DNA of 64,000 nucleotides from Escherichia phage vB-Eco-KMB39. Shown in pieces: positions 26,451 through 38,338 of the stretch (the first letter of the stretch is position 1; each line of letters starts with the position of its first letter). Made by a program: the position numbers and the translations under genes. The notes under the pieces are model-generated. The model was given only the letters and a program-made list of their open reading frames with translations. It was not told the DNA's origin and did not search any database. The stretch lies in sequence record OR539219.1; one strand, 5' to 3'.

Positions 26451-26912
26451 TCATTGAGTTTTAATTACTGCTTTAGAAGCCTTTCCTGGTAAACGACGAC
26501 TGTTGATAATTGCCATCCTACATTGAAGTGACGGGTCTTTGAACTTCTCATTAGGTTTACAAACTGTAAATCCAAGCCAAAGATTTCCATCTGTAATTTC
26601 TAAACGTCCAGGACGATATTCAACTCCATCAATAAAATCCTCATCAATGTCAGGACGCGGAGGCATACTCAGGAATTCATTAACTTCTAAAACATGGTCT
26701 TTTATTTTATGGAATAATTCAAAAACATATGTCTCATCAATCTCCCGTTGAATTGCACGATCAAGAAGATGTTGAGAATATTTTAGATGAAACGATGAGA
26801 CCCCTGCTGCTTTTGATGCCTCACGAATCTCATTGTTAATTTGACGAAACTCCGACTCAAAGTGACGACGAAGCTTATTTCGACGGATAAAAACTTCTGT
26901 ATTGATAGTCAT
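26451..26912 (-). CDS. regB: Sequence-specific endoribonuclease RegB
   Basis: 153 aa; MTINTEVFIRRNKLRRHFESEFRQINNEIREASKAAG matches recalled T4 RegB. Confidence 0.88.
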   Translation of the reverse strand: MTINTEVFIRRNKLRRHFESEFRQINNEIREASKAAGVSSFHLKYSQHLLDRAIQREIDETYVFELFHKIKDHVLEVNEFLSMPPRPDIDEDFIDGVEYRPGRLEITDGNLWLGFTVCKPNEKFKDPSLQCRMAIINSRRLPGKASKAVIKTQ

Positions 26913-26939
26913 GTTATTCTCCTCTTAACTGATAGAAAA

Positions 26940-26969
26940 ATTATACCACAGTCAAGAGGAAAAGTAAAC
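26940..26969 (-). promoter_or_regulatory. Early promoter with extended -10 (GTTTAC-N18-TGTGGTATAAT); approximate
   Basis: Near-consensus sigma70/T4 early promoter 30-60 nt upstream of regB ATG. Confidence 0.6.
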
Positions 26970-26971
26970 AG

Positions 26972-27292
26972 TTATTCTTTAAATCTAATCAATTTATTCA
27001 TAGACTTTGAAACTTCTGCACGAACCTCATGTAGATTTTTGAGCTGTTCAAGACGCTGCTCATAGTAAGCAATTTCATCTTCTTCGAGACAGTCCTGTGA
27101 ATCTTCTTTAAGATAACGTGCATAGTCCTGAAAAGCTTTACGGACTACTTCCTGGAAGTCATCAAGACTTTGAATTTTCTTAGGAGCGACAGATACACGA
27201 CGAGGTGCAGTATAATACTCATAACCAAACCCTGCACTTAATTGAGCCATTAGTATTTTTCCTCTGGTTGGAACACTGCACGACAAGCCCAC
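26972..27292 (-). CDS. Small hypothetical protein
   Basis: ORF; likely internal start. Confidence 0.4.
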
Positions 27293-27552
27293 ATACTGGC
27301 TTCTTTGAGTTTCGTTTTAGCAATAGTTAACTGATCGAGGCTTTCAGCATAATTCTTCGCGAGTTCATCATCTTCACAGCTATCAAATGCTTCCCAAAAT
27401 TCATCGTATAAAGCATCAAAGATAAGTCCTAAACGAACTTCAGCGTCTTTGATAGCATTCACTTTACCGATTTTCTCTTCGGTATGCGGCTTATAACCCT
27501 TAATATCTTCAATCATATTTGACTTCCTCACCAGTACATAAATCATATTCAA
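27250..27552 (-). CDS. Small hypothetical protein (in the T4 vs.3-vs.5 region)
   Basis: ORF; likely internal start [11 protein letters not shown]. Confidence 0.4.
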
Positions 27553-27730
27553 CTAAACGAATAGGTTCATGAATGCCATATCCCTGAACAGAAATTTCTG
27601 TCGTAGGATAAATTCCATCAATATCACCCATATTCCAGGCTTCATTAAATTGCTGTTCGCCTGAATTACTAAACCACTCGGCGAAAGCATTTAGCACATC
27701 TTCAGAACCTTCAATAATTATCTTTGCCAT
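27509..27730 (-). CDS. Small hypothetical protein
   Basis: 73-aa ORF. Confidence 0.4.
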   Translation of the reverse strand: MAKIIIEGSEDVLNAFAEWFSNSGEQQFNEAWNMGDIDGIYPTTEISVQGYGIHEPIRLVEYDLCTGEEVKYD

Positions 27731-28147
27731 TACAAACTCTCGGTGAAGGTACGAGCGATAACGTCGCGCTGCTGTTCCGGAGTCAGAGAGTTAAAGCGAA
27801 CTGCATAACCAGATACACGGATGGTCAGCTGCGGATATTTTTCCGGATGCTTAACTGCATCTTCCAGAGTTTCACGACGCAGAACGTTAACGTTCAGGTG
27901 TTGACCACCTTCAATTTTAACTAGTTTCACGACGCAGAACGTTAACGTTCAGGTGTTGACCACCTTCAATTTTAACTGTAGGTTGTGTTTCAATTTCAAT
28001 TTCACGGGCATGCAAACCGTAGAAAATTTCCGGGTCTACAAAAGAGTCCTCTTTAAAGGTTTTAGAGACAATAATTCGTGCTTGAATACCATCTTCAAAA
28101 TAAATAGTACCTTTATGTGTGCCTTCAAGAATTTGATATGCTTTCAT
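27730..28147 (-). pseudogene. GrcA/YfiD-like autonomous glycyl-radical cofactor gene, reading frame broken by a 55-bp tandem duplication
   Basis: N-terminal ORF 27917-28147 ends ...[18 protein letters not shown]; second piece 27730-27930 (GTG start only) encodes [62 protein letters not shown] with the RVSGY glycyl-radical motif; removing one repeat copy restores one ~120-aa ORF. Confidence 0.8.
27868..27977. repeat. Perfect tandem direct duplication, 2 x 55 bp
   Basis: Copy 1 at 27868-27922 and copy 2 at 27923-27977 are identical (AGTTTCACGACGCAGAACGTTAACGTTCAGGTGTTGACCACCTTCAATTTTAACT). Confidence 0.9.
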
Positions 28148-28154
28148 ATAAACC

Positions 28155-28484
28155 TCAATTAGAAAATAAATTTATCCAAGATTGTTCTTTAATTAAAAAC
28201 GGCTCAGAATCATATGCCATTAAACTTTGCGTAATTAATCCTTTAAAAGGTCCATCAATAAATTCCATGGTAAAATATGGAATTTTATTCATTAGCCGTG
28301 CATTAGGAGCAGTACATAAAACTCTGCATCCTTTGAATACACCTTTTTGTAATTTGTATTGCTTGGGATAAAATTCGCTCAAAATGTTATTATTTGCTAA
28401 AATTTCAAAATGATTCACCAATTTATTTTTAATAGTTTTTGGCGAAAAATAAAGATATTCGAAAAGTTGCGTATCTGTCATCAT
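28155..28484 (-). CDS. Hypothetical protein
   Basis: ATG 28482-28484 in ATGA overlap with upstream stop; 109 aa. Confidence 0.45.
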
Positions 28485-29074
28485 TGCATTCCAATTACGA
28501 AAAACTGCGGACGAGTAATACCACCAATACAGCATTTACTATTGCAGCAATATTGCACAGTTTCAATATGAATATCGTAAATTTTATCCATATCAGGAGA
28601 TTTAACAGGCTCATCGATTATATACAAAATTCGAGAAAGCGATAAACCTCTGAACTTGCTACCTCTATTACCAACAAAACTACGGACAGAATCAGTAAAT
28701 AAACGGAATCGAATATCATCGCTAGAATAACGAGAAAATTCTTTTTTAATGCGGCCCACAGAAATTTTAGCGTAAGCTGAAGTATTAGAAAGAACAATAA
28801 CTGTTCCACCATCATACAACCAATTAGCGGCAAAATTAGTTACTGCAGTTGATTTACCGGATTGTCTGCCACCATCTAAACGAAGTGTACAATATTCTTT
28901 AAATAAATACGACGAATCAGGTACATAAAATCCACTATTACAAATTTCTTCTACTCTAGCGTCAGAATGGTGTGTAAAAGCATTCATCAGGGATAGATAA
29001 GGACCAGTTAAAAATGTTCTCATGTTATTTCTCTTAAGGTTTTTGGGCCATTCCGTGGCGCATGAATTGTCCAT
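28481..29074 (-). CDS. Small P-loop NTPase-like protein; start uncertain
   Basis: Walker A GGRQSGKST and Walker-B-like ILYIIDEP. Confidence 0.5.
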   Translation of the reverse strand: MDNSCATEWPKNLKRNNMRTFLTGPYLSLMNAFTHHSDARVEEICNSGFYVPDSSYLFKEYCTLRLDGGRQSGKSTAVTNFAANWLYDGGTVIVLSNTSAYAKISVGRIKKEFSRYSSDDIRFRLFTDSVRSFVGNRGSKFRGLSLSRILYIIDEPVKSPDMDKIYDIHIETVQYCCNSKCCIGGITRPQFFVIGMQ

Positions 29075-29167
29075 TTCTGTATTTACCCATTACCGCACTT
29101 GGGCTCGACCTTATTACAGGTTGGCGGGAATCCCTCATAGAATCATGAGGTCCAGGTTGTTCCCATA

Positions 29168-29641
29168 TTATTTGAACGATTTAACGTACTGAATAGAACC
29201 TTTACTATTTACAAAGGCAATTTTACCATTTTTATTATACATGGTAGCAGTACGCTGATAGCCATAAGTTTGCTTACCAGATTGATAACCAACTAATGCA
29301 AAATTATCTTCACCCATTTTATTCTGTTTAGCGCGAATGCGTTCATGACCATGTGCCATAAGAACCTTAGCATCACCAGTTACAATGGATCGACGAGTTT
29401 TTTCATCTTCAACTGTATTAACAAAGTCGTCAAATGAATCAAATTTAGCATGAGATTTATTATACAGTTTTCCATCTACTGCATAATTATATCCCTGTAC
29501 ATCCATCTCAACTTCTGTACCATCATCCAATACAGCAGTAATTTTCTGTCCTTTTTTAAATTTCAAAAGATCAGTAAAAGATTCAGCAATAATTTGAGAA
29601 TTAATAGCTGCTTCAGTGATAAATTCTTGATATGTTTTCAT
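29168..29641 (-). CDS. Internal head protein (capsid-targeting-sequence family)
   Basis: N-terminus MKTYQEFITEA matches the T4 internal-protein targeting sequence with an ITE/A prohead-protease site; adjacent to e as ipIII is in T4. Confidence 0.6.
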   Translation of the reverse strand: MKTYQEFITEAAINSQIIAESFTDLLKFKKGQKITAVLDDGTEVEMDVQGYNYAVDGKLYNKSHAKFDSFDDFVNTVEDEKTRRSIVTGDAKVLMAHGHERIRAKQNKMGEDNFALVGYQSGKQTYGYQRTATMYNKNGKIAFVNSKGSIQYVKSFK

Positions 29642-29729
29642 GTGTTTCCTTTAAATATTTTAATTAGTAATTTGTCTCTTCAAGCAACTGTGAATATACT
29701 ATCACAATTCTAGGAGAAAGTAAACAACT

Positions 29730-30260
<531 letters not shown>

Positions 30261-35137: not shown

Positions 35138-35213
35138 TGGTCGAGGCAGTAGGGATCGAACCTACGACCCAGGACTTAGAAGGTCCTTGCTCTTCCTTCT
35201 GAGCTATGCCTCG
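35138..35213 (-). tRNA. tRNA-Arg (anticodon UCU)
   Basis: Manual cloverleaf: 7-bp acceptor CGAGGCA/TGCCTCG, anticodon loop CUUCUAA, T-arm GTAGG-TTCGATC-CCTAC, 3' CCA encoded. Confidence 0.8.
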
Positions 35214-35217
35214 TATT

Positions 35218-35292
35218 TGGCGGACGTGATAGGATTCGAACCTATAACCAATCGCTTAACAGGCGATCGCTCTGCCATTGAGCTACACATCC
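35218..35292 (-). tRNA. tRNA-Asn (anticodon GUU)
   Basis: Manual cloverleaf: anticodon stem ATCGC/GCGAT, loop CUGUUAA, T-loop TTCGAAT, CCA encoded. Confidence 0.7.
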
Positions 35293-35296
35293 AAAT

Positions 35297-35383
35297 TGGT
35301 GGGGAGTGGTGGAGTCGAACCACCCGAGTCGCAATGACAATGAATTTACAGTCCACACCGCTACCCCTACGGGATAACTCCCC
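35297..35383 (-). tRNA. tRNA-Tyr (anticodon GUA), long variable arm
   Basis: Acceptor GGGGAGT/ACTCCCC, anticodon loop CUGUAAA identical to bacterial tRNA-Tyr, long extra arm, T-arm GGTGG-TTCGACT-CCACC, CCA. Confidence 0.65.
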
Positions 35384-35392
35384 AAATTAATT

Positions 35393-35467
35393 TGGTGGCC
35401 CTGGGTGGAATTGAACCACCATCTGGCGATTATGAGTCGCTTGCTTGAACCTTCCAGCTACAGGGCC
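35393..35467 (-). tRNA. tRNA-Ile (anticodon CAU, presumably lysidine-modified; Met not excluded)
   Basis: Anticodon loop CUCAUAA; acceptor GGCCCTG/CAGGGCC; CCA encoded. Confidence 0.7.
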
Positions 35468-35468
35468 T

Positions 35469-35544
35469 TGGTGCTGATTGACGGAATCGAACCGCCGACA
35501 TCCTCATTACAAGTGAGGTGCTCTACCTACTGAGCTAAATCAGC
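35469..35544 (-). tRNA. tRNA-Thr (anticodon UGU)
   Basis: GCTGATTTAGCTCAGTAGGTAGAGCACCTCACTTGTAATGAGG...; anticodon loop CUUGUAA. Confidence 0.8.
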
Positions 35545-35549
35545 AAAAC

Positions 35550-35639
35550 TGGCGGAGGCGATAGGATTTGAACCTATGAGTCGCCGGAGCGACTGCCGGT
35601 TTTCAAGACCGGTGCATTCAACCACTCTGCCACGCCTCC
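35550..35639 (-). tRNA. tRNA-Ser (anticodon UGA), long variable arm
   Basis: Acceptor GGAGGCG/CGCCTCC, anticodon loop CUUGAAA, long extra arm, CCA. Confidence 0.8.
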
Positions 35640-35653
35640 AAATATTTATATAT

Positions 35654-36262
35654 TTATATATTGTTAATTTGATTTAGAATTCTTTTTGCTTGAGTATGAC
35701 TTACGCCAATATGCTTAGCATATTTAGATAATTCGCCGCGTTTAGAAAAATCATATAATTTAGAAATTTCTATTCTTCTTTTTCTTTCATCCGCAGAAAC
35801 TTTTGCTTCGTTTGCTTTTGCTATTTTACGTTTAGCTTCTTGAGAATGAGTTTTACCAGCAAAGCCATTCTTCATTAATCCATTTGAAGACCATCCTTTT
35901 AATTTTCCGTTAGAATGTGCCTTTTTAACACCCAATGAAATTAATTCGCGTTGCTGATCTGTCATAGGATAATTATTTATATGATCCCATCCACCTTCAC
36001 CTCCAAGTTTTAAATTATACACATCTGGTCTATTTAAAAACTCTTCTGTGACAATATTTTTCTCGGCTTCAAGCATAGATTCTTTATCATCAAAATACTC
36101 TAATATTTCTTTAGAAAAATTTTCTATACCATATTTATCTTGGGCTCTTTTTAATAATTTACCAGAACCCATATATCCATCATCTAAATTTTCGGTAGAA
36201 TGCACACCAATATAAATTTTATTATTAATTTTATTTGTTATTTTATAAAGATAAAAATGCAT
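35654..36262 (-). mobile_element. segB: GIY-YIG homing endonuclease SegB-like, within the tRNA cluster
   Basis: N-terminal GIY-YIG motif (FYLYKITNKINNKIYIGVHS); sits between two tRNA sub-clusters as T4 segB does; start taken at ATG 36260-36262 (SD AGGGA), track ORF extends to 36304. Confidence 0.8.
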
Positions 36263-36308
36263 ATCAGTCCCTAATAAAGAACTGAGCGTCTCACGACGAG
36301 TCATAAAT

Positions 36309-36382
<74 letters not shown>

Positions 36383-36387
36383 AAATT

Positions 36388-36474
36388 TGGTGCGAGAAGT
36401 GGGACTCGAACCCACAAGGAAATAATTCCGCAGCATTTTAAGTGCTGTGCCTTTACCAATTTGACCATTCTCGC
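36388..36474 (-). tRNA. tRNA-Leu (anticodon UAA)
   Basis: GCGAGAATGGTCAAATTGGTAAAGGCACAGCACTTAAAATGCTGCGG...GGGTTCGAGTCCCACTTCTCGCACCA; long variable arm. Confidence 0.9.
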
Positions 36475-36476
36475 GC

Positions 36477-36548
36477 TGGGAATAAAGGACTCGAACCTTT
36501 GCATCCTGGAATCAAAATCCAGTGCCTTACCAACTTGGCTAATTCCCA
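36477..36548 (-). tRNA. tRNA-Gln (anticodon UUG)
   Basis: TGGGAATTAGCCAAGTTGGTAAGGCACTGGATTTTGATTCCAG...GGTTCGAGTCCTTTATTCCCAGCCA. Confidence 0.85.
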
Positions 36549-38080: not shown

Positions 38081-38338
38081 TTATTTTAAATCTTCTAATC
38101 GTTTCTTCATCTTAGAACCATTTTTAGCAATTTCTCCTGCATCGGAGCATAACGCTAAAAGTGCTTTAACTTTAGTTTGGTCTCCTTTAAAAGACGAAGG
38201 ATCGACCGCAGCAGCAAGTTCTTTAATACGAGAGAAAAGACGCTCAGCTTCAGCTAAAGCCATTCCAAGCTTTACTTCCATACCGTGGGAAGATTCGGTG
38301 ATAGTAGTTTTTGTAGCAAACTCTTTGAAAGTTTTCAT
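38081..38338 (-). CDS. Internal head protein-like (CTS-bearing) at the T4 ipI locus position
   Basis: 85 aa, N-terminus MKTFKEFATKTTITE/S resembles the internal-protein targeting sequence; located just upstream of 57B. Confidence 0.55.
   Translation of the reverse strand: MKTFKEFATKTTITESSHGMEVKLGMALAEAERLFSRIKELAAAVDPSSFKGDQTKVKALLALCSDAGEIAKNGSKMKKRLEDLK

Follow-up and report, generated by a model that had tools for sequence, protein, structure and literature searches.

The interval between regB and the lysozyme gene e was analysed in a stretch of 64,000 nucleotides (nt) from Escherichia phage vB-Eco-KMB39 (sequence record OR539219.1), here called the window, which represents ~40% of a genome of roughly 167 kb. 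The T4 record gives the order of this interval as regB, vs.3, vs.4, vs.5, vs.6, vs.7, vs.8, denV, ipII, ipIII, e, as an earlier note on the window had correctly stated when it drew attention to the lack of denV, the gene for the pyrimidine-dimer DNA glycosylase, and of ipII. The T4 genes were translated and compared with the window by tblastn. The list of open reading frames (ORFs) places every gene of the interval on the minus strand, in the order regB, vs.3 to vs.8, a single internal protein gene (Ip4) and e (Table 1). The ORF content and coordinates agree with the earlier note, including its three small ORFs and its ORF of 109 amino acids (aa), all four of which are known T4 genes: vs.3, vs.4 (Acb2), vs.5 and vs.7.

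Table 1. Features of the regB–e locus of vB-Eco-KMB39 in window positions.
Feature	Position	Strand	Description
regB endoribonuclease	26451..26912	-	100% identical to T4 RegB over 153 aa (tblastn); Pfam REGB_T4, E=8.1e-69; conserved flank
vs.3 orthologue, 92 aa	26972..27250	-	97.8% identical to T4 Vs.3; phrog_2037, unknown function
vs.4 orthologue, Acb2 family	27250..27516	-	95.5% identical to T4 Vs.4; family of cyclic-nucleotide sponges directed against the cyclic-oligonucleotide-based antiphage signalling system (CBASS)
vs.5 orthologue, 73 aa	27509..27730	-	phrog_1986, E=9.6e-44; two tblastn high-scoring segment pairs (HSPs) in different frames against T4 Vs.5
vs.6, GrcA-like glycyl-radical cofactor gene, split	27730..28147	-	ORFs of 76 aa and 66 aa with a 14-nt overlap
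vs.7 orthologue, 109 aa	28155..28484	-	99.1% identical to T4 Vs.7; phrog_2049, unknown function
vs.8 orthologue, 180 aa	28481..29023	-	stand-alone P-loop (single RecA-like domain) NTPase; 86% identical to T4 Vs.8 residues 38-219
Conserved block, ~130 nt (vs.8-side anchor)	29030..29165	-	directly upstream of the vs.8 start; in the T4 annotation, the first 37 vs.8 codons
Core motif, 51 nt, candidate structured RNA	29080..29130	-	closing helix, hairpin ACCU-GUAAUA-AGGU, CGAGCC...GCGGUAA
Ip4-type internal protein gene, 157 aa	29168..29641	-	N-terminal capsid-targeting sequence MKTYQEFITEA; Pfam DUF7412, phrog_3155
e-side anchor	29610..29729	-	e–ip intergenic region (early-promoter-like GTTTAC...TAGTAT, ribosome-binding site) and first 32 nt of the ip gene
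Lysozyme e	29730..30224	-	97% identical to T4 lysozyme; Pfam Phage_lysozyme; conserved flank on the other side

The window belongs to Tequatrovirus. Its region 26400-30300 matches 907 phage records, nearly all of them T4-like, and the closest are Escherichia phages ECP52 and vB_EcoM_G4507 (99.5% identity). The remaining parts of the window are just 96–97% identical to yet other Tequatroviruses, and by these matches its source is a mosaic Tequatrovirus.

T4 DenV has no counterpart in the whole window: the best tblastn match was a chance match (E=4.1), as expected from the earlier note, and blastn with denV DNA returned only chance matches of 13–26 nt. The same DenV query found 1119 phage records, serving as a positive control. 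The complete genomes of ECP52 and T2, which share the layout of the window, gave no DenV match at E≤1. Because denV is missing both from the window and from these complete genomes, it is likely that this phage lacks the pyrimidine-dimer glycosylase.

The single internal protein gene was identified by full-length profile matches (DUF7412, E=2.5e-95 over residues 1-157; phrog_3155, ‘internal virion protein’, E=2.3e-101), and its product is 99.4% identical (tblastn) to the RB14 protein annotated ‘Ip4, similar to T2, RB70 Ip4’. Ten of its first 11 residues are identical to those of both T4 IPII and T4 IPIII, giving a capsid-targeting sequence of the MKTYQEFIAEA type that ends in a gp21-type cleavage context. 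Along the direction of transcription the gene comes immediately after e, as does T4 ipIII, and thus occupies one of the two T-even internal protein (IP) loci, which are found next to e or next to 57B/tRNA. Judged by these features, Ip4 is a putative head-packaged, injected internal protein. T4 IPII matched it at E=1.8e-4 in tblastn and at 8e-07 in a pairwise BLASTP comparison (31% over 77 aa), a similarity that comes from the first 11 residues, and the tblastn match of T4 IPIII was confined to the first 13 residues; beyond the targeting sequence (~11 residues) no similarity of Ip4 to IPII or IPIII, the GmrSD inhibitors, was detected. The claim that the locus holds no ipII-like gene is therefore borne out, since what IPII shares with the lone internal protein is carried by the N-terminal MKTYQEFI.EA. 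Another ORF, of 85 aa, whose N-terminus (MKTFKEFATK...) resembles a capsid-targeting sequence was noted at 38081-38338 on the minus strand, ~1.5 kb from a tRNA cluster at 35138-36548, and presumably belongs to the other IP locus.

The cassette slot between vs.8 and e

Alignment with T4 (NC_000866 64939-66415) located the borders of the replaced segment. From e, the two sequences stay homologous across the e–ip spacer and the opening 32 nt of the ip gene, as far as position 29610. Homology begins again precisely at 29168, where the stop codon of Ip4 (window) or denV (T4) lies. Between these points 1442 bp of T4, containing three cassettes (the ipIII body, ipII and denV), are replaced by a single cassette of 441 bp, the Ip4 body; apart from the targeting sequence, Ip4 has no relation to IPII or IPIII. 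One junction thus falls at the end of the capsid-targeting codons and the other at the stop codon just upstream of the conserved block that precedes vs.8, while the slot itself and its flanking anchors are the same in both phages (flanks 87–92% identical). The e-side anchor, measured from the 3′ end of e to position 29610, is 91.6% identical to T4. Its sequence also gave a second, 73% match to the T4 ipIII–ipII intergenic region and the ipII targeting codons, indicating that the module is repeated before each ip gene; the promoter-like sequence within it is a putative early promoter.

The order found in the window is shared by T2 (AP018813), RB14 (FJ839692), ECP52 (ON782582) and IME537, and the first three likewise lack denV, ipII and ipIII. 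From vs.8 to e the window is 92–99.6% identical to ECP52, RB14 and T2, and IME537 is 95.9% identical over the whole locus. A census of 32 evenly spaced full-locus records found the span and piece structure of the window in eight (about a quarter of the Tequatrovirus genomes sampled) and an annotated denV in at least 13. The position of denV within the slot varies: vs.8–denV–ipII–ipIII–e in T4, with a T4-like order in L012, vs.8–Ip4–denV–e in MLF4 and L007, and vs.8–ipIII–denV–..–e in L008 and L011; L010 keeps a denV remnant. Loci of the MLF4, wV7 and NBEco003 type (vs.8–Ip4–denV–e) have the same flanks as the window, and Ip4 of MLF4 is 100% identical at the aa level, but they differ in carrying a 411-bp insert between e and Ip4 at window position 29657-29670 that holds a denV allele 78% identical to that of T4.

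Taken with the junctions, these comparisons make it very probable that the regB–e interval is a T2/RB14-type allele of one of the two known hypervariable T-even IP loci, with a single Ip4 cassette in the vs.8–e slot. The vs.3–vs.8 run is orthologous to that of T4, and the variable slot lies between vs.8 and e. According to this model, homologous recombination carried out by the phage itself at a pair of conserved anchors would add, remove and rearrange the cassettes. The first anchor would be the early promoter, ribosome-binding site and capsid-targeting codons repeated before every ip gene, and the second would be the conserved ~130-nt block before vs.8. Lacking the glycosylase, the phage would be expected to show T2-like rather than T4-like sensitivity to ultraviolet (UV) light; T2 is reportedly about twice as UV-sensitive as T4 and is said to be without the v (denV) function. 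It would also inject a different internal protein, and would thereby counter host type IV (GmrSD-like) restriction enzymes other than those countered by Ip2 and Ip3. Each of the T4 proteins Ip2 and Ip3 inhibits its own specific GmrSD type IV restriction enzyme, and neither protein is present in T2 or T6 (PMC12373910); the target of Ip4 is predicted to differ from theirs.

High variability, with >30 IP variants, has been described for both IP loci of the T-even phages, and promoter/stem-loop (PeSL) elements are the proposed mediators of their shuffling (Arbiol et al, 2010, PMC2839356, citing Repoila, 1994 and Comeau, 2007). PeSL shuffling resembles the arrangement in the window in that small accessory genes are flanked by repeated, promoter-containing intergenic modules acting as recombination sites, and the T-even IP loci are named as an analogous case (PMC2839356). 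The vs.8-side anchor is unlike a PeSL: it is a single-copy, G+C-rich conserved block with a motif common to unrelated phages, rather than a promoter/stem-loop repeat.

Several points weigh against the T2/RB14-type allele. The recombination mechanism is drawn from the junction positions and the literature, and the UV phenotype and the target and function of Ip4 are predictions. No database record matches the window over its full length, and ECP52 and T2 serve as proxies. Roughly 100 kb of the genome lie outside the window, where a denV copy is conceivable. The window being just ~40% of a Tequatrovirus genome, and the position of denV relative to the ip genes being changeable, denV could have moved to a site outside it; this is improbable, however, since denV lies between vs.8 and e in every examined locus that has it, and the complete genomes of the same layout are devoid of DenV matches.

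vs.8 and the other vs genes

The P-loop ORF that the earlier note placed at 28481-29074 is T4's own vs.8, and the gene stands while its start does not. The product is homologous to T4 Vs.8 over its full length and matches phrog_1488 (E=1.9e-77), a family of ‘unknown function’ in keeping with the note's description of the protein as uncharacterised, and 32 homologues are 41–95% identical. Because all 24 of 24 family members (41–85% identical to the query) start at MRTFL/MK..L, the start is most likely at 29023 (MRTFL), giving a product of 180 aa. An upstream 34-codon ORF at 29034-29138 on the minus strand corresponds to what T4 annotates as the N-terminus of Vs.8; in the window it is out of frame with vs.8. 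In T4 Vs.8 itself (NC_000866 64253-64912, 219 aa) the 37 N-terminal codons are not common to the family and are out of frame in most relatives, and the T4 annotation probably places the start too far upstream, within the conserved block. The T2 record (AP018813, L005 6757-7400) has vs.8 in three reading frames with just a 58-aa fragment annotated, which is a pseudogene or a sequencing error; product names across that record are largely unreliable.

Sequence and fold place Vs.8 among the P-loop NTPases of the additional-strand, catalytic-glutamate (ASCE), RecA-like class. The family invariably carries DGGRQSGK (Walker A, GxxxxGK[ST]), R114, R125-G126 and E138, the conserved ILYIIDEP block supplies a Walker-B-like acidic pair, and the AlphaFold model (pLDDT 83.6) is a single RecA-like domain with the expected alpha/beta fold. 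Besides ‘unknown function’, profile searches returned weak similarity to terminase ATPases. At 180 aa the protein is far shorter than the large terminase subunit TerL (about 450-610 aa), its Terminase_6N score stays below threshold (16.3 vs 22 bits) and the terminase profile match covers ~100 residues of the ATPase part alone. Compared with the N-terminal ATPase subdomain of T4 gp17 and the RecA1 domain of superfamily 2 (SF2) helicases, to which it is 8–21% identical, Vs.8 consists of one domain, without a second RecA or nuclease domain and without helicase motifs beyond Walker A/B. A sequence search of solved structures gave only an insignificant match (E=0.086), a PADLOC search only a weak PtuA AAA match (E=0.0066), and literature searches on ‘vs.8’ and on T2/denV found nothing usable. 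The best reading of the motifs and the predicted fold is that Vs.8 may be a stand-alone switch or motor subunit that hydrolyses nucleotides and works together with a partner. The resemblance of its fold to RecA-like domains of DNA/RNA helicases, including Mfd, RadD and RecG, could suggest that Vs.8, or another gene of the interval, supplies a substitute UV-repair activity; we regard this as very unlikely, because T4 has vs.8 beside denV, and on gene content vs.8 is not a substitute for denV and is unrelated to its absence.

The vs.4 orthologue, which the earlier note had left among its small ORFs, belongs to a characterised anti-CBASS family, Acb2, with a match to Pfam PF24729 (Acb2/Tad1 hairpin) at E=1.2e-19 and 70.6 bits, against a gathering cutoff of 27. 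The 73-aa form of vs.5 is common to the window, RB14 (222 nt), ECP52 and MLF4; relative to it T4 vs.5 (58 aa) is frameshifted, making T4 the odd one out. For vs.3, PADLOC gave a weak Cas11f match (E=0.0044) and nothing more. RefSeq records apply the label ‘pyrimidine dimer DNA glycosylase’ to the vs.3 homologue of IME537 (L013 3573-3893) and likewise to a small ORF at the vs.5 position in vB_EcoM_RZ (L023 1463-1681). Such mislabels could falsely suggest the presence of denV; in IME537 a check showed that the label sits on vs.3.

An exact tandem duplication of 55 bp at 27868-27977 (TRF: period 55, 2.0 copies, 100% match) splits the vs.6 gene, so that residues 1-75 and 58-120 of T4 Vs.6 match the window in two frames (tblastn). 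The glycyl-radical domain is present on the C-terminal piece (PF01228, E=5.9e-19), and no intact ORF of ~120 aa, the length of GrcA / T4 Vs.6, remains. The unit is single-copy in 15 of the 15 best records listed among 727 matches (two-piece alignment, 246-bp span vs 301-bp query), and T2, RB14 and ECP52 differ from the window in lacking the duplication. Because the best records listed carry a single copy, the duplication appears to be a private mutation or a sequencing or assembly error. It shows that the sequence contains private changes or errors, yet it is extremely unlikely that the missing denV is itself a recent private deletion or assembly artefact of this isolate rather than an inherited allele, given that a complete Ip4 gene replaces the region with no gap and that the layout recurs, at the identities given above, in ECP52, RB14, T2, IME537 and many other independent isolates.

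A conserved block and RNA-like motif upstream of vs.8

The block that forms the vs.8-side anchor begins right after the stop codon of the upstream gene, whether this is denV (T4), Ip4 (window) or ipIII (L008 and L010). In Dhakavirus the two anchors are the most conserved HSPs of the locus: the block is the top HSP at 90% identity, the next best (89%) corresponds to the capsid-targeting codons, and HSPs other than the block range over 75–89%. In four more distant T4-like phages it was the only part of a 3.9-kb query detected by megablast. The annotations of Dhakavirus, Gaprivervirus and Karamvirus leave it intergenic.

The block includes a 32-nt core, ACCTGTAATAAGGTCGAGCCCAAGTGCGGTAA, that is found between genes of unrelated phages as well, namely Vequintavirus FV3, the 44.9-kb phage Ivi and contigs of ~47, 70 and 117 kb. 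These copies are oriented as their flanking genes, and at least four of the loci have tRNA genes nearby. Three closing base pairs of the motif covary (CG, GC, UA and GU, with AU in a metagenome copy), and two of the three are intact in all 21 distinct sequences. None of 500 shuffles reached the covariation score, and sliding the register lowered the paired fraction from 88% to ≤48%. A hairpin upstream of the core likewise shows compensatory changes. Our own covariance model, R1, scored 71.5 bits (E=1.6e-26) on the sole copy in the window. Over the whole 151-nt region upstream of vs.8, folding was no more stable than that of shuffles (z=+0.49), and outside the core the two sequence types have differing consensus folds; for these reasons structure is claimed only for the 51-nt core and the upstream hairpin.

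Other explanations of the conservation were considered. Protein coding was ruled out for the block, as its frame relative to vs.8 varies among phages and in type-B phages a 5-nt insertion puts the conserved 3′ part into another frame, and for the core, as an in-frame TAA precedes it in the ~47-kb phages; an ORF on the opposite strand (29022-29192) is incompatible with the G-U pairs. ARAGORN ruled out a tRNA. The block had no Rfam 15 match in the window (E≤10) or in five loci of other phage groups (E≤1). A host origin of the motif is without support, there being no match in E. coli genomes and no match to the exact pattern in 185,579 bacterial and archaeal genomes, and no searchable paper contains the core sequence.

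Variants of the motif were also seen. Karamvirus ZX13 (L041, ~1430-1714) has the motif twice in tandem upstream of its vs.8 homologue; the copies have diverged, and copy 1 has a closing helix of CUGG/CCAG in place of GCC/GGU. In L042, L045, L049, L051, L057, L061 and L077 (~47-kb contigs or short fragments) and in L044 (70 kb) the motif lies between long hairpins. The order in these phages is CACAACAGGTAAGAGCATT, 40–60 variable nt and then AGTGCTCTTATCGTTGTG, next to tRNA genes. The stems of the flanking hairpins covary (AAGAGC/GCTCTT vs AATGGC/GCCATT) and the variable inserts recur at differing positions across phages, an arrangement that looks array-like.

We judge the chances to be even that the vs.8-side anchor holds an undescribed small structured RNA that has spread horizontally among unrelated virulent enterobacterial phages. 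The structure would comprise the closing helix with its covarying pairs, a 4-bp hairpin that is invariant and, as a proposal, a second hairpin of 3 bp, together forming a three-way junction. The spread would cover five Tevenvirinae genera, Vequintavirus and the ~47-, 70- and 117-kb contigs. Such a motif could be a processing or regulatory element, or an RNA acting on a host factor or defence, and the conserved block may also be a homology patch that fixes one edge of the slot.

Significance of a denV-free locus

The observation that denV and ipII are missing is correct, but it describes a common, known allele of a known hypervariable locus. Because the same layout is widespread and T2 is an example of it, a denV-free Tequatrovirus is ordinary, and the unusualness implied by the earlier note gives way to a T2/RB14-type allele. 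The locus displays at the sequence level the classical difference in UV sensitivity between T2 and T4, with denV being a cassette that is optional at a known hot-spot of shuffling. Annotators may treat a ‘missing’ denV in Tequatrovirus as normal, and vs.8 as a conserved neighbour rather than a replacement. For strains used in phage therapy or biocontrol, greater UV lability and an anti-restriction (internal protein) repertoire unlike that of T4 are predicted. The RNA-like motif, which lies outside what the earlier note had flagged, is the only element that might be new; as a covarying motif of unrelated lytic phages that is absent from Rfam, it may merit a study of its own.

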